Positions 43,044 to 52,578 of a stretch of 64,000 bases of DNA are shown one piece after another; positions within the stretch are counted from its first letter, which is position 1, and every line of letters starts with the position of its first letter. Source of the DNA: Opitutales bacterium (lineage in GTDB: Bacteria; Verrucomicrobiota; Verrucomicrobiia; Opitutales; UBA2987); contig CBDDEL010000015.1 in NCBI GenBank assembly GCA_965226885.1, forward strand, positions 576,001 through 640,000, given 5' to 3'. The position numbers were made by a program, and so were the translations under genes. A model generated the notes under the pieces. It ran no database searches, was not told the DNA's origin, and saw only the letters and a program-made list of their open reading frames with translations.

Positions 43044-43943
43044 TCAAAAATTTTCCTGTTCGGCGTAGGCGCAAGTTGCCGGTGTGCCATCCGCCTCTTT
43101 GAATATGGAATAGTATTCCTTGCGGGGAATTACCATGTTATCCGCGCTACGGTAGTGAAATTGAACAGCCCGGCGGCGTTGGGGGGATCGATTGGGCGGT
43201 GTTTCATGAGGCATCATGCTGGAAAAGAAAAGTACGCCGCCGGCCTTTATTTCGATCGGCTTCGCCTGAGAGGGATCGATGCGGCCTTTCATGATCTCGC
43301 AGTCGTAGGTGTGATGGTGCCGTAGGGGGCCAAGCTGGTGCCCTCCAGGAATTACATGCATACAGCCGTTTTCGGCTGTGGCATCGTCCAGGGCTAGCCA
43401 CACACCACAAACCTTTTCAAGTTTTTGAATGGAAAAATAGGCGTTATCCTGATGCCAGGGTTTCTCTGTCCCAATCAGTGGCGGTTTAATCAGCCCCATG
43501 GTTTGGTAGTGCACGGGATTCGAGCCGAGGATGGACCTCACGACCCCTTGCAGCTTGGGGTGGTTTTTCGTGAGATAAATGAAGTGGGGCGTCTCGTTCT
43601 GGAAATTCATGAATTTGCGGACATTCAGCACGAGTTCCTCCAATTTATCGGGATGGGGTTCGTAACCCGCCTCGAGCCAGAACCCGCATTCCCCCCCTTT
43701 TTTATTGAAGCGAGCCCCTGAGTAATTTGTTTTGCGGCCATCGTTCAGCGTCCATTCAGCCAATTCTTCGTTGAAGGCGTATTTGCGGATTATGTTTGAG
43801 ATATCGGCGAGGGCGGCCTCCACCTCATGCCGGGAAAGGGCGTTTTCAAACGCAAGATAACCCTGTTCGTTATACAGTTCCAATTGCCTCAAGGTGAGGG
43901 TTTCGGGGCAATCCTCAAAACGTGAATCTATCGTTTCAGTCAT
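43044..43943 (-). CDS. PhyH-family Fe(II)/2-oxoglutarate dioxygenase
   Basis: KPWHQD, WLALDDATAENGC, PHETPPNRS...RRA. Confidence 0.9.
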   Translation of the reverse strand: MTETIDSRFEDCPETLTLRQLELYNEQGYLAFENALSRHEVEAALADISNIIRKYAFNEELAEWTLNDGRKTNYSGARFNKKGGECGFWLEAGYEPHPDKLEELVLNVRKFMNFQNETPHFIYLTKNHPKLQGVVRSILGSNPVHYQTMGLIKPPLIGTEKPWHQDNAYFSIQKLEKVCGVWLALDDATAENGCMHVIPGGHQLGPLRHHHTYDCEIMKGRIDPSQAKPIEIKAGGVLFFSSMMPHETPPNRSPQRRRAVQFHYRSADNMVIPRKEYYSIFKEADGTPATCAYAEQENF

Positions 43944-44129
43944 GGTAGCGATCTTATCATGTCAACAGCTAAACAGTAAAAAGACACGGGAGGCAAATAT
44001 TTGTTATTTTGTGTTTTTTGCTGTTTTTTTTGAAGTTTAATCAAACGGAGCCAACGGTAGTGTCCTAATTTGGAATGTCTTTTTAACTGGAAATATTCTC
44101 AAATATGTGCAATATTGCATAAAAAGGGG

Positions 44130-44201
44130 TAGTGGAGGTATGGGGACTTGCACCCCAAGCGGTCACAGGTGTAGAGCAGGTCGCCGCACTCTGCTACCCC
44201 C
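44130..44201 (-). ncRNA. Putative tRNA-like RNA (acceptor stem plus T-arm, no anticodon arm)
   Basis: GGGGGTA/TACCTCC 7-bp stem with G3-U70, A73, T-arm TGGGG-TGCAAGT-CCCCA; ends CTA rather than CCA. Expression not shown. Confidence 0.5.
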
Positions 44202-44207
44202 TTTTTG

Positions 44208-45197
44208 TCAGCCTTCTTCAAAGTCCATTGGTATAGTTTCATTGAATTTTGGTGCAGCTATATCTAGTTTTCTCTTGAACTCATCCCAAGAATGACAGGT
44301 TTTCATCAAAAACGTAACATTTGAAATATGTTGTTTCAATTCGGGAACACCGTAATCCTCTGTGAAATGCTGGTGATGTTTTCTCGCACGACCCCCAGAA
44401 GTGGTTCGTGGATTCTTTTTCTTTAATTCGGAAAGGACTTTAGGGGCCATTCTGTTGTAAACTATATCATTTGTCCAGTGGCCCACATATTGGGGTTTTT
44501 GAGTTCCTTCGCCGTCAGGGAAAGATAATTCTTTTAAACGAAAAAGTTCCTTATAAAAACTCGGGTTAAACCGACGAGTCCATTTTGACCATTCATCTTT
44601 AATATATTTATCCAGAATTTTTTGTAAGGCCAATTTGTCTCTGATTTCTTGATAGCCAGTGACCTCATCCACTAACGCAATAATGCCGACCTTTGCTAAG
44701 ACCCGTGTAATTATTTCGCACTGGTCAGCAATCTCTCGCTGTTGTTTATTTAACCCCGGTGAGCGTTTACGTGCTTCAAGAACGGCATCACAAATTCTTG
44801 GCAAGATCGTTGCTTCGTAGGCAACTGCCGGAACCCCTCCACGTCCGGGGCGAATGAATCTTATAGGACGATTTAGCTCCATGGCCAAGTCATTCTCGAT
44901 AAACGGTTTAAGGTATTCTTGAGACAGAAAACCCTTCAATATCGCCCCATGGGATTGTCCAAGCCCTAAAGCTTCTTGCATACCTCTTCCAGACAATACG
45001 CGAGTACCATTATCAAGAACATAGCATTCAAGCTTTTGATTGCCTAAGCTTAATTTATTATCGGCCGCACCCCATTGGGCCCTTGGTAGGCTCCACTTGG
45101 CTTTAGCCGCTTTTGAGGCAATTTCCTTTCTGGTTTTAGCATCGAGCTTTTTCGCCCGTGCTTTACCGCCTTTAGATTGCATAGATTTATCTTCCAT
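44208..45197 (-). CDS. P63C domain protein
   Basis: ALVDEVTGYQEIRDKLALQ, FYKELFRL, GHWTNDIVY, KHHQHFT; basic N-terminus SKGGKARAKKL. Confidence 0.85.
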   Translation of the reverse strand: MEDKSMQSKGGKARAKKLDAKTRKEIASKAAKAKWSLPRAQWGAADNKLSLGNQKLECYVLDNGTRVLSGRGMQEALGLGQSHGAILKGFLSQEYLKPFIENDLAMELNRPIRFIRPGRGGVPAVAYEATILPRICDAVLEARKRSPGLNKQQREIADQCEIITRVLAKVGIIALVDEVTGYQEIRDKLALQKILDKYIKDEWSKWTRRFNPSFYKELFRLKELSFPDGEGTQKPQYVGHWTNDIVYNRMAPKVLSELKKKNPRTTSGGRARKHHQHFTEDYGVPELKQHISNVTFLMKTCHSWDEFKRKLDIAAPKFNETIPMDFEEG

Positions 45198-45259
45198 GCA
45201 TAGAAATAAATATTATTTTATGCTTGCAAGCAAGCTTTTTTTATGAAAATCTTTTATGC
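45198..45259. promoter_or_regulatory. Divergent 62-bp control region with a 12-bp palindrome
   Basis: TGCTTGCAAGCA at 45221-45232; both start codons lie in TATGCATG. Confidence 0.55.
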
Positions 45260-47655
45260 ATGGCAAATAAATTATCTACCTCCAAAAAAGTTCTCGCTGT
45301 TTCTGCCCTTTGCGAAGGCTCCTCCATCCGTTCAATCGAGCGAATGACAGGCATCCACAGGGATACAATCATGCGCCTGGGCGTCCGTATAGGTCAAGGA
45401 TGCGCCGCTATCATGGATGAAAAGATGCGTGACTTGCCATGTAAGGATTTGCAGGTCGATGAGATATGGGGCTTTATTGGAAAGAAGGAAAGGAATGTCT
45501 ATTACGGTGAACTCGGAAAAGGTGATATATGGACATTCATTGCGCTCGACAGTGAAAGTAAGCTAATTCCTTCGTTCCGGGTTGGCCGACGTGATACCGT
45601 GACAGCACAGGCATTTCTTGAAGATTTGGCTTCCCGCATGAAAAACCGTGTCCAGCTTTCCAGCGATGCGCTACGGGCATACAGGGATTGTGTCGAAAAG
45701 GCTTTTGGCTGTGAAGTCGACTACGGGCAGATTGTAAAAATCTTCGCCCAAAGCGATGTTGAAGCACAGCGTAGGTATAGCCCACCCCAAGTCATTTCAG
45801 TTACGCGAAACCCTATTGCTGGCAATCCTGACAAATCCCGAATCTGCACAAGCCATATTGAGAAGCAAAACCATACCTTGCGGATGCACTGCCGCCGATT
45901 GAGCCGTCTGACTAACCCGGATATTTCATGAAGGGTAAAGTTTGGCTCGTTATTGCTATTGGAGATGGATTTCTTTGTATTTTGAGCAGATCGTCTTGAT
46001 TTTTAGGTGTTTTTCAGGGTGTAGAGACACTGCCCCCTTTCCCCCATTGGTTCGGTAGTGCCGGGGGCAGCACCAATGCACCCTTTAGGTTGGCACCAAT
46101 CGGCGGGCCGCATGGTTGAAAAGACTGGCCCAAGGATAACTCTCACTTAGGTGAAAGTGAATCGTTCGGGTGTTGCGCACGATGACCGCTCCGATCTTGA
46201 TTAATTTGAGCCGCAGGGTGTGCCATTGGGCCCGCGCCCACTTCGTCCCTTTTAAGGCTAACCGGCGCATGGCTTCCATCAAGGTGTAGGCCAGCGCCGA
46301 CAAGAGCAATCGCCACTGATTGGCCCACCATTGATGGGCGCTGGTGCGCTCGCTGAACAATTGCATCTGTTCCTTGATTCGGTTCTCCATTTCACCGCGG
46401 CCACAGTATACCTTGTCGTAAAGCTCCTGGGGATCGCCCGGCAGGTTCGTCACCACGAAGCGCGGGTTGGACCCCTGTGCGGTGTGTTCGGCTTTATGGA
46501 TGACCAACCGCAGCCATCGCCACGAATCGGCAGCATAGACGAAGTCCTGGAATAACCGTTGTTTTTTACCCCTTAGTTCGAACCATTCTTTGGCCTGCTT
46601 TTGCAACTGCTGGGCGTCTTGCTGCAAGCGTGCATTGCGAGCCATCCCCACGATGTAACTAACTTCGTTGCGGTCGCACCAAGAGAGTATCCGGTCTCGA
46701 CAAAATCCACTGTCGGCGCGCCAAATAATCCGCGTACGGGGCCAGCTTTGGCGAATCCGTTTAACCAGCAATTTGAGGATGGCCCCGGCATGCTTGCTGG
46801 CATCGATCTTGCTCGGCCGCAGGTAGGCCACCAGCAGCTGATCACCGCAAAAAACATATAGCGGCAGAAAACAGTAATGATCATAATAACCGTGGAGAAA
46901 ACGTCCCTCCTGGAGCCCGTGCACCGGATTGTCGGTGGCGTCAAAGTCCAGGATGATCTCTTCGGGTTCCTCGGCAAAGGAGCCCATGAACTGTTCGACC
47001 AACAGCTCGTTTACCGCAAAGGCCGCCCGCCGATCCTGCCCGTTTTCAAAACGACACAAAGTCGGCGCGCTGGCCAACGTTTCAATGCGCCCCGTTACCG
47101 TTTGCAACAATGGATCGTGGCGCAGGGTATCAAAGTCGTTCAAATCCTCATAGCCCGCCACCAGCCCGTAAACGCGCTGCCGCAGCATCCCCAATACCTC
47201 ATGGCGTACTTTGCCCTTCTGCCGTTTGTCCACTAACTGTCGGGCCGCTCGTTCGGTCAAGCCCAACTGCCGATCCACTTCCCGGATCAAAAGCAGTCCG
47301 GCATCCGAAGTAACCTCTCCGCCCTTGAAATCAACCCGCACACGGCGGCCTTTTACCCTTGTCAACTGTAGCTTTAATTGTTTACCTTTTGTCATCGCTG
47401 ATATTGCTTTAATTATTGATCTATCCTGCTGTATATCAGCAGTTAAGCATATCAACGATACTTTTTTTACGAAATATCCGGGCTAATGCTTTCAGCAAGA
47501 AACTGGAAAATTTCAAGGCGGCTGTGCCCCTCAACTTTGCTTACTACAATTTCGTCAAGATTCACGGCTCTATCCGTTGCACTCCTGCGATGGAAGCAGG
47601 TGTCACGGATTCAATCTGGACAGTCAGCGATCTAGTTGAAATGATTGAGAAGTGA
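45260..47655 (+). pseudogene. Single-ORF IS1-family transposase split by IS1380
   Basis: HTH (EGSSIRSIERMTG), QVDEIWGFI, SSD, TSHIEKQN; rejoined across CTAA it reads RLTNAFSKK, 274 aa. Confidence 0.88.
45916..47482 (-). mobile_element. IS1380-family element (1567 bp; transposase 46085-47395 open)
   Basis: IRs present; TSD CTAA (45912-45915, 47483-47486). Confidence 0.95.
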
Positions 47656-47939
47656 AGGATATTGCAGACTTAGCCGACGCGATCACAGTCATGCACGGCT
47701 GTGATTGTCGCTATATAGGTTCAAAGCTCGTCAAAGAGGTTTTCCAAGGGCAAGTAGCATGGGAAGGCGAAGTCGAGATATTTGACCTTAAAGACCACTC
47801 TAAAACCAATACCTGCTATGCGTGGAGCTACAAAGACAACAAGGGAGAAAATCAATATGTCACTGTTTTACAAATACCGCCTGTAGATTCGGCAGAGACG
47901 GCAGTCAAAGCAGTGATTGCAAATCAGAAATCAACATGA
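47652..47939 (+). CDS. Small hypothetical passenger protein (95 aa)
   Basis: GTGA overlap with the transposase stop; MHGC...WEGEVEIFDL..H...CYAWS. Confidence 0.7.
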   Translation: MKDIADLADAITVMHGCDCRYIGSKLVKEVFQGQVAWEGEVEIFDLKDHSKTNTCYAWSYKDNKGENQYVTVLQIPPVDSAETAVKAVIANQKST

Positions 47940-49651
47940 GTCATTTTAGAATAAATAAGCTTAATATAGAGGCTGTCCCAAAAATATAAAGATTTTATAG
48001 TCAACTGGATGACGTTGATAAAAAGAGCCGGAAAGAGCAAGTTTTTGCTCGATCCGGCCAAAAAAGGGTTCTATAATTGGGTTCTATAATTGAGTTAGCG
48101 AAAATCAATATAGCCCTTTCTATGAAAAATATAGCCATCCAATGCCTCCTGCGTCCAGCTTTAACTGTGGTCGACCGGTGCCTCGATTACGATAACTTCC
48201 GCGCCACCATTGATCGAATCGATCGGTTGCTGATCGACTCGGAGGTGGAATCGCAGGCCATTGAGCTGGCCTTGGAGGGGTGGCCGCCAATGGGTCTAAA
48301 GGCCCGGCGGCAGCGGGCCAGTTTTGCCATCAAGGCACTGCGCATGGATACGCTGGGCCGTCTGCTCGGAGGGATTTCGTTTCGGCATTTGTCGCGGGCT
48401 CTGGGCAGCAGCGATCTGTTGGCCGACTTTTGCCGTGTCCGGCAGATCGATGGCATCAGGGGCATCTCCAAAAGCACCCTGGAGCGGGCCTCGAAGTTTT
48501 TCAGCGAAGAGCAGTTGAGGGCCTTGCACCGGACCTTGACTGAGGTGGTGGGCGATGCCCTTCTGGCCCGGCAGGTGGGATTGGACAAGCCGATTGACAC
48601 CACCATTTGCCTGATCGACGGCACCTGTTTGGAGGCTAACATTCATTGGCCGACGGACTGGGTATTACTCAAGGATGTAGCCGGCACGTTGCTCAAAGCG
48701 ATCCGGCTGATCCGCGAGAAGGCCGGTGTGCGCCATCGCATGCCGATCGAACCGGAGCCCTTGGCTCGGCAGATGAATCGGCTGTGCATACAGATGACCC
48801 ACAGCCGGCGGCGAAAGGACAGCGCGCGGCAGCGCAAGGGTATCTTGAGGCAGATGAAAAAGCTGCTCAAACGGATCGGGGAGCATGCCCGCAGTCACCG
48901 GGAATTATTGCAAGCCTGCTGGGAGCAAAGCGATTACAGCGAAAAACAGGTCCAACAGATCCTCGCCCGGATGGAGCGCATGAGCGAGCAAATCCCGGTG
49001 GTCATCAAACAGGCGCACGAGCGGATCATTGGCGGCCGCCAGGTGAAAAACGCAGAGAAAGTCTTGAGTGTTTACGAACTCGATGTGCAGGTGATTGTGC
49101 GAGGTAAAGCGGGCCAAGAGGTCGAGTTCGGCAACACCCTGTTTTTGGGAGAAAGCGTTGAAGGGTACCTGCTGGACTGGAAACTCTACGGCAGCCGAAC
49201 TCCAAGCGAAAATGAACAAATGCAAGAGAGTTTGCAAAGACAGAACCGCTTCAACCTGGAAGAACCCATAGCGGCCATGTGCGCGGACCGGGGATTTGCC
49301 TCCCAGCGGGCCCGCCGGCAGTTAGCCCAGGAGGGAATCTACGACGCGCTCTGTCCACGCGATCCGAAGCAGTTGAAAAAACGGATGGAGGAACCACTGT
49401 TCAGACAATTGCAAAAGCGCCGGGCCAGCACCGAAGGGCGGATCGGGGTATTGAAGAATTGTAAACGCCGGGATGAAACCGGTACGGGGGTCGGGGTAAA
49501 ACCGGTACGCTTGGAATAAGGTTTAGGTTAGTAATTGCAGGTACGTCAAGGTTTAGCAGGTACGTCAAGGTTTAGGGTTTGGGAGTTGGTTTTGGGGATT
49601 GGCTTGGGGTCGGTGAGGAGGCCGGAGGCCGACGAGCCGGGCCCAAGGCGT

Positions 49652-50362
49652 TTATTGTTTTGTGCCACGGCGACGGCGTCGAGCATCGCGCAAGCGGTAG
49701 CTTTGCCCGTTGGCTTCGAGGATATGCACCCGATGGGTGAGTCGGTCCAGCAGAGCTCCGGTGAGCCGTTCGGAACCGAGCACTTCGATCCAGTTCTCAA
49801 AGGGCAGGTTGGTGGTGACGATGAGACTGGTGCGCTCGTAAGCGCGGCTGACCACGTCGAAGAGCAGTTCGGAACCGGTCTTGGAAAAAGGGACGTAACC
49901 GAGTTCGTCGAGGATGAGTAGGTCGAGCCTTTCGAGTTGCTTCATGAAGCGCTGCAGGTCGTGGTTGTCGCGTTGCTCGAGCATATGGGTAACCAGGGCG
50001 GTGACCAGGTGCGTTTTACCGGTACCGGCGTTACCGAGGAGCAGCACGTTTTCGCGCTGGTCGACATACTCCCCGCGCATGAGCTCTCGGATGAGCGCTT
50101 CGTTGATCGAGGGCTGCGCTTCAAAGGCGAAGCTCTCGAGGGTCTTGAGCACGGGGAAACGGGCGTTTTTGATCCGCCGCTGGGCGGCCCGCTGTTCGCG
50201 TTCAATGAGCTCCCGTTCGACCAGATGCAACAAAAAGGCGGCGTAATCGAGCCGGTCCCGGGAACAAGCCGCGGCCACCGCCGGCCATTCGCGCAGGATG
50301 GTGGGCAACTTCAGTTTCTTGAGGTGATGGTGTAACAGCAGCTGGTTTTTTTCTTCCTTCAT
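49652..50362 (-). pseudogene. istB: IstB ATPase with probable in-frame deletion
   Basis: GNAGTGKTHL, LILDELGY, ALLDRLTH; the segment normally after Walker A appears missing. Confidence 0.7.
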
Positions 50363-51864
50363 AAAGCCCCTCCTGGAATCTTGAGCAGTTCGCTGTAGGC
50401 ACCGAGGTCAGGGGCGGCCACACGGACGTGACGCAGGTGTGGATGGCCGTCCAGCCGGAAGGTTCTGCTCCCGTAGTCTTCCTGAGGATAGAGATACTGG
50501 GCGATGGCCTCACGAGTCAGTCCCCCCACCCGCAGGGCCGAGACGACGGCCTGCTGCAAGGCCGCCATGGGGTGTTTCTCCAACAGCCGCAGCACCCGGA
50601 TATACTCCCGGGTGCCTTCGCCCCCGCATTGGCTTTCGAGCCGGCGTCTGAGGACCTGCAGGCACTGCGGCAACTGCCAGCCCGAGAGTGGGCGGGCGAA
50701 GTCCAAAGCGCCCGGTTTTTTCTCCAGCAAAGCCAGGTAGTGCACCGGCTCGAAAGAGACTTGCTCTTTATCCCAAATGCGGCGGTGCCGGGCCACCTCT
50801 TGGCCCCCACAGAAGATCACCACCTGCCGACAGGACCCTTCCACCACCACCGGATGGTGGGCGCAGCGCACCGGCACCGAATAGTCGTTGCACTCGAAGC
50901 GCACCAGCGAGAGGCTGCTGACGCAGGTCGAGCGTTTGCGGCTCGCTTCAAAGGGTATGGGCGGCAACGCCAGCATGACGGCGCGCTCCTCGGCCAGCAG
51001 TTCCTTTTTCACCGCCCTTTTCCCGCGTAATTTACGCTCCATGTCCCGCTCACATGCCTCCAACAGCTTTGCGTTGAGTTCCTCCAGGTCCCGAACCTGC
51101 GGTACCGGTACCAGGAAGTTGGCCCGGGCATAACGCACGATCCCCTCGACCACGCCCTTCTCGTTGGGCCGGGCGGGCAGACAGAAGTGTTCCTCGAACA
51201 GGTAATGGCTCTGTAGCTGCAGAAACCCGTCGGTCAGCTTGCGTTCACGCGAACCGATAATCTTACCCACCGCCACCTTCGAGTTGTCATAGCTGATGCG
51301 CCGGGGCACCGCCCCGAAAAACTCAAAAGCTCGCAGGTGCCCCTCCCAGAAGCTCTCCGTGCACTCCCGTTCGAACACCTGCACGAAAAAGGCATCGCTG
51401 TAGGGCAGGCTCATGGCAAAAAATGGCCGCCTACGCAATTGCCCCGCCTCCTTCACCAGGGCATGACCGAAGTCCACCTGTCCCTCCCCGGGGCGGTGCT
51501 CCAGCGGCACGAACACTTCCCGCCGCCTCGCTCGCAGCTCGGCCACCACCTCCTTGACCGCCGTGTAGCCCCCTTGGTAGCCCTTCTCCCGACCCAAACG
51601 CTGGTAGATCCGTTTGGCCGTATGGCGCTGCTTCTTGGGCACGTTCCGGTCCGCTTTGAGCACCTCCTCGATCCAGCCCACATACGGATCGATCTTGCGC
51701 TCTCGCCTCTTCTTGCGCCGGTATCCCGGCGGCTGGGAATAGGCCAGCATCTTTCCCAGGGTCTCCCAGTGCAGTCCCTCTTCTCGCATTACAGAGCGCT
51801 TGCTCTGCTTGTCCCGCAGCACTTTGTGCCGCACTCTTGTCCATTGCTTCATATCTCGATACAC
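50359..51864 (-). CDS. istA: IS21 transposase
   Basis: KQRHTAKRIY, GQVDFG, YDN, EKGVVEG, NDYSVP. Confidence 0.95.
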   Translation of the reverse strand: MYRDMKQWTRVRHKVLRDKQSKRSVMREEGLHWETLGKMLAYSQPPGYRRKKRRERKIDPYVGWIEEVLKADRNVPKKQRHTAKRIYQRLGREKGYQGGYTAVKEVVAELRARRREVFVPLEHRPGEGQVDFGHALVKEAGQLRRRPFFAMSLPYSDAFFVQVFERECTESFWEGHLRAFEFFGAVPRRISYDNSKVAVGKIIGSRERKLTDGFLQLQSHYLFEEHFCLPARPNEKGVVEGIVRYARANFLVPVPQVRDLEELNAKLLEACERDMERKLRGKRAVKKELLAEERAVMLALPPIPFEASRKRSTCVSSLSLVRFECNDYSVPVRCAHHPVVVEGSCRQVVIFCGGQEVARHRRIWDKEQVSFEPVHYLALLEKKPGALDFARPLSGWQLPQCLQVLRRRLESQCGGEGTREYIRVLRLLEKHPMAALQQAVVSALRVGGLTREAIAQYLYPQEDYGSRTFRLDGHPHLRHVRVAAPDLGAYSELLKIPGGAL

Positions 51865-52578
51865 TCCTCCTTTCTAGGATAAGCGTACCGGTTTTAAAGC
51901 GCCCTCTTTACCGTACCGGTTTTTCCCCGGCGTTTACAAAGAATCGCTGGCAGGCCGGGCGGTTGCGCAGCAAAGGCTTTGCCAACCGCTCGATCAGCGT
52001 AGCCTGGTCGGTACTCTCGCACAACCTATGGAAAGTAGCCAAGATGCTGGCCCAGCAAGACGAACTAAAAACCAAAGCGGCGGCCTAGAGAGCGGAAAAG
52101 CAAGGACAATACTTTTTCACAGCCTTACTGTCGGCTCATACAAAGAAAACCAGGCAACCGGACCCCAAAACCAGTATCCTAACGTCATAGGAGAGCAAAG
52201 TTGATACTCTCCCAAATGCAAATACCTCTAAAATGAGCGCCTATCAAAAGCCCTCGCAAAAATCACCCTTTTGGGACAGCCTCTAATATAGCCCCTCAAG
52301 GATTTAAGAAAGTATATGAGGTGAGAATAGAGGTAGCTCAATCCACATCTGACGAAGACGGCGACAGAATTTTTCTAGGGGCACCGTGTATCGGACCGAA
52401 AGAACTTGAATACTGGAAAAATCAATTGATTAGTCAGATTAAGAAACTTCGTTTCCCAAATTAGGACACTACCGAGCCAACCTATCGATTGACGGTTTTG
52501 GGGTTTTGTGATATCATGCATCACTTTTAGCGATCTGGTTATGCGAAACGAAACGAATTTATTTAGGGAGTGAATTTT

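Follow-up and report, generated by a model that had tools for sequence, protein, structure and literature searches.

The closest published kind of RNA to the one described here are the allo-tRNAs, irregular and non-canonical tRNAs of soil bacteria and metagenomes (Mukai et al., Nucleic Acids Res 2016/17, PMC5389517). In the accessible part of that publication, allo-tRNAs have an acceptor/T-stem split of 8/4 or 9/3 and a long variable arm, they often lie near transposon-related genes or toxin-antitoxin loci, and some of them combine G3:U70 with a wild-type UUA anticodon and insert alanine in E. coli when given CUA; the authors suspect that some are regulatory RNAs and not decoders. Two further points of reference come from the accessible part of PMC7609411, namely the tRNA-Pyl of the Methanomethylophilus alvus type, with a CUA anticodon, an unpaired A on the 3' side of the anticodon stem, no linker between acceptor and D-stem, a tiny D-loop and little or no variable loop, and the D-arm-less tRNA-Ser of mitochondria, where function survives the loss of the D-arm. 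The subject of this work is a 69-base tRNA-like element on the minus strand of a 64,000-nt stretch of DNA from an Opitutales bacterium (NCBI GenBank assembly GCA_965226885.1, contig CBDDEL010000015.1, positions 576,001 to 640,000 of the forward strand), referred to as the window. The element belongs to a family of conserved, covarying, tRNA-shaped RNA genes with alanine marks and a nonsense-type loop, which are terminal cargo of IS1-like transposons. The reading we favor, with a probability of roughly 0.45, is that of a transposon-borne minimal tRNA gene with alanine identity and of the nonsense-suppressor type, of which the window holds a worn copy.

The family is a previously undescribed variant of transposon-borne irregular tRNA. 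No description of it was found in the literature searched, which lay mostly outside subscription journals, and its motif strings are absent from the accessible supplement text of PMC5389517. Measured against the accessible account of the allo-tRNAs in that paper, the family is likewise non-canonical and linked to transposons, and some members likewise combine G3:U70 with UUA. It differs by a 7/5 split, a missing variable loop, a vestigial D-arm and an extended, bulged anticodon-like stem; 8-bp acceptors were seen, by eye, in two tRNA-like genes recovered alongside the family (loci L145 and L146). The tRNA-Pyl and the D-arm-less mitochondrial tRNAs, as presented in the accessible part of PMC7609411, are alike in shape, with no homology shown. 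Canonical tRNA-Ala shares G3·U70, A73, a GGGG start and a canonical T-arm with the family, whereas the family lacks the 4-bp D-stem and the variable loop, has a stem of 9-11 layers in place of 5 bp, carries C37 and shows the triplets CUA, UUA or AUA instead of NGC. Furthermore, the host tRNA-Ala genes encode CCA, while most family members do not.

In the window, the minus strand from G1 (44201) to the discriminator A73 (44133) reads GGGGGUA GC AGAGUGC GGCGACCUGCUCUACACCUGUGACCGCU UGGGG UGCAAGU CCCCA UACCUCC A, and the element is delimited by its sequence, by a covariance model match and by covariation in the family. The acceptor strands GGGGGUA/UACCUCC (44195-44201 and 44134-44140) form 7 bp with G3·U70, and the T-arm (44141-44157, stem UGGGG/CCCCA) abuts the acceptor. 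The T-loop is the 7-nt UGCAAGU, in which U54, C56 and A58 are kept and position 55 is G. A preliminary description of this locus, made from the letters of the window, had pointed to exactly these features (a 7-bp acceptor with G3-U70, the discriminator A and an abutting 5-bp T-stem with a 7-nt loop holding U54/C56/A58), and all of them are present. The same is true of the start 6 nt after the stop codon of the P63C gene, with CAAAAA between TGA (44208-44210) and G1.

Nevertheless, the case for the element from the window sequence alone is weak. ARAGORN returned 0 tRNA or tmRNA genes across the 64-kb window, Rfam gave no match in the window at its gathering scores, and at E<=10 on 43800-44500 it gave seven noise matches, none of them to tRNA (RF00005), tmRNA or Y RNA, the three families named in the preliminary description. 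Folded alone, the 69-mer is of ordinary stability (z -0.34), as 74/200 shuffles fold equally well. The 91-nt stretch that includes the neighboring A and U runs prefers a single long imperfect hairpin (-34.1 kcal/mol, z -2.53), pairing AAAAGGGGGUAG...CUACCCCUUUUU. The element is a single copy in the 5.48-Mb host genome, and a host repeat or miniature inverted-repeat transposable element was rejected on this ground. A small open reading frame (ORF) running through the element was discarded as well, since the frame is open in the window and in L150, but closed in L140 and L151 by a TAA or TGA after 'LYT' (by eye).

The family was assembled from metagenomes and viral contigs. Metagenomes were scanned for a T-arm-like pattern at a distance of 46-76 nt from the terminal inverted repeat (TIR) of the enclosing transposon, which yielded 18 loci, 14 of them distinct by sequence. 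These comprised six clear homologues (L140, L141, L148, L150, L151, L154), two distant ones (L147, L156), the two tRNA-like genes with an 8-bp acceptor and a long variable arm (L145, L146), a genuine tRNA-Ser (L143), a group II intron end (L149), a lone hairpin (L152) and one locus with nothing recognizable (L144). A scan of viral contigs added L111, which is truncated on its 5' side, and a TIR-independent scan that demanded the loop motif added L202 and L200, along with L198/L199. The covariance model R2, built from six metagenome sequences with the window excluded, matches 44129-44204(-) at 67.4 bits (E 1.1e-13 at a rough calibration), and the next-best matches in the window reach 16.8 bits. 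As the model was built without the window, this score makes the element a family member beyond chance.

Searching the host and 150 genomes of its phylum with the model R1 gave the host's own two matches and otherwise genuine tRNA genes throughout, with tRNA-Ala at 21 of the 29 loci. The family is accordingly rare in genomes and stands nearest to tRNA-Ala. In a transposase-based sample of 31 viral loci, which is the source of L220, a model match was present in 2, and among the 105 listed TIR ends only L111 and L035 were matched. Most elements with this TIR are thus without the tRNA-like element, which makes it cargo and not part of the transposition machinery. A blastn comparison of the L151 element with annotated plasmid and phage records gave no match.

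The shared structure was derived with RNAalifold from eight sequences and consists of an acceptor stem, a 2-bp hairpin, a long arm and a T-arm, without a variable loop. The acceptor has 7 bp with G3·U70 and A73, and the T-arm is canonical with UUCRA. The D-arm is replaced by a 2-bp hairpin, GC-NGGNN-GC, immediately after the acceptor. The long, anticodon-like arm has 9-11 layers: two 3-bp segments separated by an A that bulges out on the 3' side, then an internal loop and 2 bp, with a 7-nt loop of the form CU-NUA-CA as the cap. The pairs of the 7-bp acceptor and of the 5-bp T-stem stacked on it are kept with compensatory changes, the T-loop is UUCRA in 12/13 members (the window has UGCAA), and U33 and the 7-nt loop are retained despite the non-canonical arms. 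Of the other marks of a canonical tRNA, the D-stem of 3-4 bp with its G18G19 loop, the anticodon stem of 5 bp and the variable loop are missing, and most members also lack a purine at position 37. It is therefore in the middle of the molecule that the preliminary description needs revision. Its D-stem (AGAG/CTCT) is not kept in the relatives, and its view of an anticodon-less RNA with no room for an anticodon arm gives way to a long arm with a 7-nt loop, supported by RNAalifold and by pair counts; its acceptor, T-arm, alanine marks and transposon all hold. What the family has lost is the D-arm, not the anticodon arm.

Pair counts were made over 13 members. Of 270 pair cells, 95.9% were standard pairs, compared with 78.1% for shuffled partners (0/500 reached the observed value) and 49-60% for partners slid by 1-3 columns. 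Compensatory changes on both sides occurred in 14/22 pairs (39 cells), so the covariation for which the preliminary description had suggested to look in relatives does exist. Single-sequence minimum free energy folds of L151, L141 and L200 gave the same three-way shape.

The anticodon-like loop of the window, CUCUACA (44170-44176), was placed by the family alignment and the consensus structure and tips the long arm, which is mismatched in this copy. Its middle triplet CUA is also found in L140, L141, L148, L150 and L151, and in L200 and L202, both of which were found with a loop-biased pattern. UUA occurs in L147, L156 and L220, the last with the loop GUUUAGA, G3·U70, A73 and an encoded CCA, approximately 260 nt upstream of an IS1-like transposase. 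The remaining triplets are AUA (L154, L111) and UAU (L035), and L019 has lost the loop. Two relatives with a canonical cloverleaf and G3·U70 extend the series, namely L058 with UCA, 67 nt inside the same TIR, and L056 with UUA, upstream of an IS1-like transposase. Across the family and these canonical relatives, all three nonsense anticodons are present, U33 and A36 are invariant, and an anticodon complementary to a stop codon sits in a 7-nt loop with the exceptions of AUA and UAU. The suppressor-type reading is argued from this pattern, in which the triplets vary only within CUA, UUA, UCA, AUA and UAU while U33/A36 stay fixed; the conserved loop points to a suppressor-type, tRNA-derived gene and not to a bare acceptor/T-arm minihelix. 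The ancestry in tRNA is argued from the mainly tRNA-Ala hits of R1 and from the transposon setting that the canonical-cloverleaf G3·U70 relatives share.

Alternatively, the loop may be read with 8 nt, as in L200 and L198. The L198/L199 gene, on viral contigs at approximately 1490-1565, is a tRNA of canonical cloverleaf form whose anticodon loop, CUCUACAC, has 8 nt and for which ARAGORN calls the 4-base anticodon 'ctac'; the mini-tRNA family has this loop sequence in common with it.

With regard to alanine identity, G3·U70 is present in 10/12 members with both strands (L148 and L200 have G-C) and A73 in 12/13, and the window carries both, in agreement with the tRNA shape and alanine marks that had been proposed from the window. 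From G3·U70/A73, the family is predicted to be charged by alanyl-tRNA synthetase (AlaRS). The identity set of tRNA-Pyl, with G73 and no G3·U70, is unlike that of the family.

Under the suppressor-tRNA reading, the element would form the 3' end of the transcript of the upstream cargo gene, RNase P would cleave at G1, 4-6 nt past the stop codon, and a 3' nuclease would trim the end before CCA is added. The RNA may then be charged by AlaRS via G3·U70/A73 and could weakly read UAG as alanine, with other members reading UAA or UGA. At minimum, the element would punctuate and end the cargo transcript. The alanine-inserting allo-tRNAs of PMC5389517 serve as the precedent for this reading. A wider version, against which we consider the odds to lean, would have a widespread family of IS1-like transposons spreading alanine-charging suppressor tRNAs that jointly cover the three stop codons and include a D-arm-less form of approximately 69 nt overlooked by standard tRNA finders, with mobile stop-codon softening or addiction and a minimal ribosome-active scaffold as the outcome.

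Several observations speak against the suppressor-tRNA reading. The triplets AUA and UAU are not nonsense anticodons, the anticodon pattern was noticed post hoc, and L200 and L202 came from a pattern that required the loop sequence. Position 37 is C in most members; tRNAs nearly always have a purine there, C37 is unusual for decoding, and it would weaken it. No in-frame stop codon in need of suppression was seen in the transposase and cargo ORFs examined. Many family members are close kin, the alignment behind the pair counts was fitted to the model, and neither ARAGORN nor the Rfam tRNA model calls any reduced member (RF00005 was absent at the members with clan competition in use). In one DNA run, three differences were seen over approximately 1.2 kb, two of them within the element. 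This is a hint of relaxed constraint in this lineage, and one of the two restores a G-C pair. The single RNA-library run that was found contributes one contig, covering only 44962-45133.

The window copy itself is a decaying, worn family member. Its D-loop, AGAGU, has no GG, which other members carry, its T-loop has G55 where all 12 other aligned members have UUC, and two pairs in its long anticodon-like arm are mismatched in the R2 alignment. Having lost the D-loop GG, U55 and two arm pairs, and with the transposase of its carrier broken, it is probably inactive.

The strongest competitor, which we judge unlikely but well worth taking seriously, is cis-acting punctuation of the transcript. 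Here, the tRNA shape would just recruit RNase P and RNase Z, so that the mRNA is cut just past the cargo stop and transcription is kept out of the transposon end or the transposase gene; charging and decoding would be irrelevant, and the nonsense-type loop would be the least harmful state of an alanine-chargeable relic. The placement of the elements speaks for this explanation and is counted in favor of the suppressor-tRNA reading as well. In 8/8 end-proximal full-length members, the stop codon of the upstream ORF lies 4-6 nt before G1, and the upstream genes belong to three unrelated families: P63C in six cases (the window, L019, L140, L148, L150, L151), a ParA-like ATPase in L141 and an AAA_16 ATPase in L154. 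This spacing fits the role of a processing signal, which, along with a decoy and an antitoxin-like RNA, is among the candidate roles put forward in the preliminary description. The element always follows a cargo ORF and precedes either the TIR or, by approximately 200-260 nt, a same-strand transposase (L202, L220, L056). In L202, it lies 93 nt after another ORF and approximately 240 nt before the transposase, and in L140, L141, L148, L150 and L151 a divergent IS1-like transposase follows. tRNAs punctuate mitochondrial transcripts, and the elbow elements that RNase P uses, a D-loop GG and a T-loop UUCRA, are kept in the family. C37, which speaks against efficient decoding, points in the same direction. 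However, a pure processing signal would need neither a conserved 7-nt loop with U33/A36 nor G3·U70/A73, and most elements with this TIR do without it, so it is not needed for transposition.

A tie to P63C as such was rejected, as 22 of the 23 P63C loci in genome contigs lack the element (L019 has it). It was also absent at both P63C loci on viral contigs (L204, L205). Since P63C loci are mostly without the element and two members follow ATPase genes, the tie is to the transposon and not to P63C. At one P63C locus (L021), a T-arm-like fragment, GGTTCAATCCCCGCC, and then a run of T follow the gene; the sequence in view there showed no 5' acceptor strand that would match the fragment.

A weaker rival than transcript punctuation, and in our view an improbable one, is a mimic of the tRNA-like domain (TLD) of tmRNA that binds SmpB, AlaRS and EF-Tu and either rescues stalled ribosomes without tagging or damps trans-translation as a decoy. 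G3·U70/A73 is a TLD trait, and so are the lack of a D-stem and of a variable loop and the presence of a long helix beside the T-arm. In tmRNA, including TLD-only mitochondrial forms, the D region is unpaired or vestigial and a helix abuts the T-arm, as in the family. In Rfam at an E-value threshold, tmRNA (RF00023) is the best match of six members, all through both ends only and all below the gathering score of 47: L147 (39.8 bits), L035 (33.9), L141 (28.9), L151 (28.7), L150 (25.7) and L148 (21.5). These sub-threshold matches are explained by the common alanine identity and the missing D-stem, and the window copy gives no tmRNA match even at E<=10. At 69 nt, the RNA is too short to hold the mRNA part of tmRNA. 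Unlike tmRNA, the family lacks a tag reading frame and pseudoknots, and its conserved anticodon-like loop is without counterpart there. Moreover, the canonical-cloverleaf relatives L056 and L058, with full D- and anticodon arms, argue for an origin from tRNA, and the genes next to the element included none that resembles smpB.

Two further TLD-only matches to RF00023 in the host genome lend the TLD mimic some support. These 66-nt matches, G000:C14:72494-72559 and G000:C10:392994-393059 (L188/L190, L191), cover both ends only; their scores are 49.3 bits, which exceeds the gathering score, and 40.9 bits. Their sequences read GGGGGCG..GGAUUUCGA..GGCGGUUCGAUUCCGCC CGCCUCC A, with G3·U70 and without an mRNA part, and lie in a duplicated region of approximately 640 bp, just upstream of a helix-turn-helix-like small ORF. 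The genuine host tmRNA is located at C15:318749-319106.

A long imperfect hairpin with only an incidental likeness to tRNA, acting as an intrinsic and possibly two-way terminator after P63C or as a DNA site for the transposase, is very improbable and largely refuted by the family alignment. The 91-nt fold of the window and the A and U runs that flank it there are in its favor, but the U run is confined to the window, the outer GGGGUAG/CUACCCC pairing is likewise missing in relatives, and a terminator scan has no entry at the site. The compensatory changes of the relatives match the cloverleaf-like fold, and a DNA binding site would show no such changes. Finally, an att-site relic, i.e., a piece of host tRNA or ssrA duplicated by an integrase, has a negligible chance and is refuted: tRNA-like 3' halves are typical of att sites and L021 has its T-arm-like fragment after a P63C gene, but the element here has both of its acceptor strands, is distinct from each of the host's four tRNA-Ala genes and from the 3' end of its tmRNA, turns up again in unrelated metagenomes, and sits within a transposon bounded by TIRs and a target-site duplication and not at an island border, so the relic of which the preliminary description had warned was not found.

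If the family is active, transposons, beyond recoded phages, would move nonsense-suppressor tRNAs between bacteria, the bacterial ribosome would be shown to accept a D-arm-less tRNA, and a compact scaffold with alanine identity would be gained for genetic-code engineering. If it provides only punctuation, it would be a bacterial counterpart to mitochondrial tRNA punctuation, embedded in a mobile element. On either reading, these are genes missed by standard annotation, with no ARAGORN call and without a family in Rfam. The interest rests with the family and less with the eroded window copy in a dead transposon.

The IS1-like transposon of the window spans 44056-52473. It is bounded by an 18-bp perfect TIR identified by repeat analysis, GGTAGTGTCCTAATTTGG at 44056..44073(+) and its reverse complement at 52456..52473(+), and flanked by an 8-bp target duplication, GAGCCAAC, at 44048-44055 and 52474-52481. 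The tRNA-like element is internal to the inverted repeats, 59 nt inside the left end and oriented outward, which bears out the suggestion of the preliminary description that a transposon carries it. The cargo gene with the P63C domain (44208..45197, minus strand, 329 aa; Pfam PF10546, 1.1e-28) is divergent from the IS1-like DDE transposase. The N-terminal part of the latter (45224..45931, plus strand), cut by an insertion sequence (IS), was recognized by NCBIfam IS1, Pfam DDE_Tnp_IS1 and tblastn and scores 68.9 bits on NCBIfam IS1, below the cut-off of 100, while the transposase of L012 reaches 95.4 bits; tblastn links it to the transposases of L012 and L202. Its C-terminal remainder follows past the insertion at 47486..47655 (plus strand; tblastn, residues 262-312 of the L012 transposase). 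The interrupting element is of the IS1380 family (45913..47485; 20-nt inverted repeat; NF033539, 411.7 bits). A second nested element with an ISNCY/IS5-like transposase occupies 47967..52285 (17-bp perfect inverted repeat) and has itself received a 2.5-kb high-copy IS at approximately 49460-51938. The transposon is thus dead, thrice invaded, with its transposase broken by nested IS insertions.

Insertion sequences of the IS1/IS1595 type with passenger genes are comparable to this transposon in their zinc-finger and DDE transposase, short TIRs starting with GGT and 8-bp duplication. The TIR, the target-site duplication and the DDE transposase are all present here, but scores below the NCBIfam cut-offs place the transposon on a distant branch, and its 15-19-bp end flanks very diverse cargo. 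The 15-mer of the transposon end was found in 106 stretches of viral contigs, where it adjoins very diverse DNA. A non-autonomous derivative of 2.66 kb with the same ends lies at 1443-4102 of L019, a metagenome-assembled genome. It has an 8-bp duplication of its own and lacks a transposase; its genes are a small ORF, an N6/N4 DNA methylase and P63C, together with the tRNA-like element. In this copy of the tRNA-like element, 7 nt are deleted from the loop region and 15 nt are inserted ahead of the 3' acceptor strand.

Other tRNA genes occupy the same place. A tRNA-Arg(CCG) in L038 and a tRNA-Ser(GCT) in L143/L153 lie in the same position and orientation beside the same TIR, and the tRNA-like genes of L145 and L146, allo-tRNA-like by eye, lie approximately 50-70 nt inside it. 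Given the genuine tRNA-Arg and tRNA-Ser genes, tRNA genes seem to recur as terminal cargo in this family of transposons.

The AF2 model of P63C (pLDDT 73) had no match in the PDB at E<=0.001; the best was DdrC (E 0.017, TM 0.23-0.30), and this structural search of a predicted model gave no hint of an RNA-related role. PADLOC returned nothing useful for P63C or the neighboring genes. By blastn, the host genome contains well over 80 near-identical copies of the 2.5-kb IS. Five identical weak model matches in the window (14561, 20846, 23302, 33048 and 46010) suggest that the IS1380-family element is present there at least five times. At the left edge of the transposon, contigs from the DNA runs end or diverge at 44047 and continue with right-flank-like sequence, AGCCAACCTATCC..., and in one run, 44039 is followed by an inserted 18-nt repeat of the ATCAAACGC type. 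The divergence at approximately 44040-44055 may mark an empty or paralogous target site in related strains.

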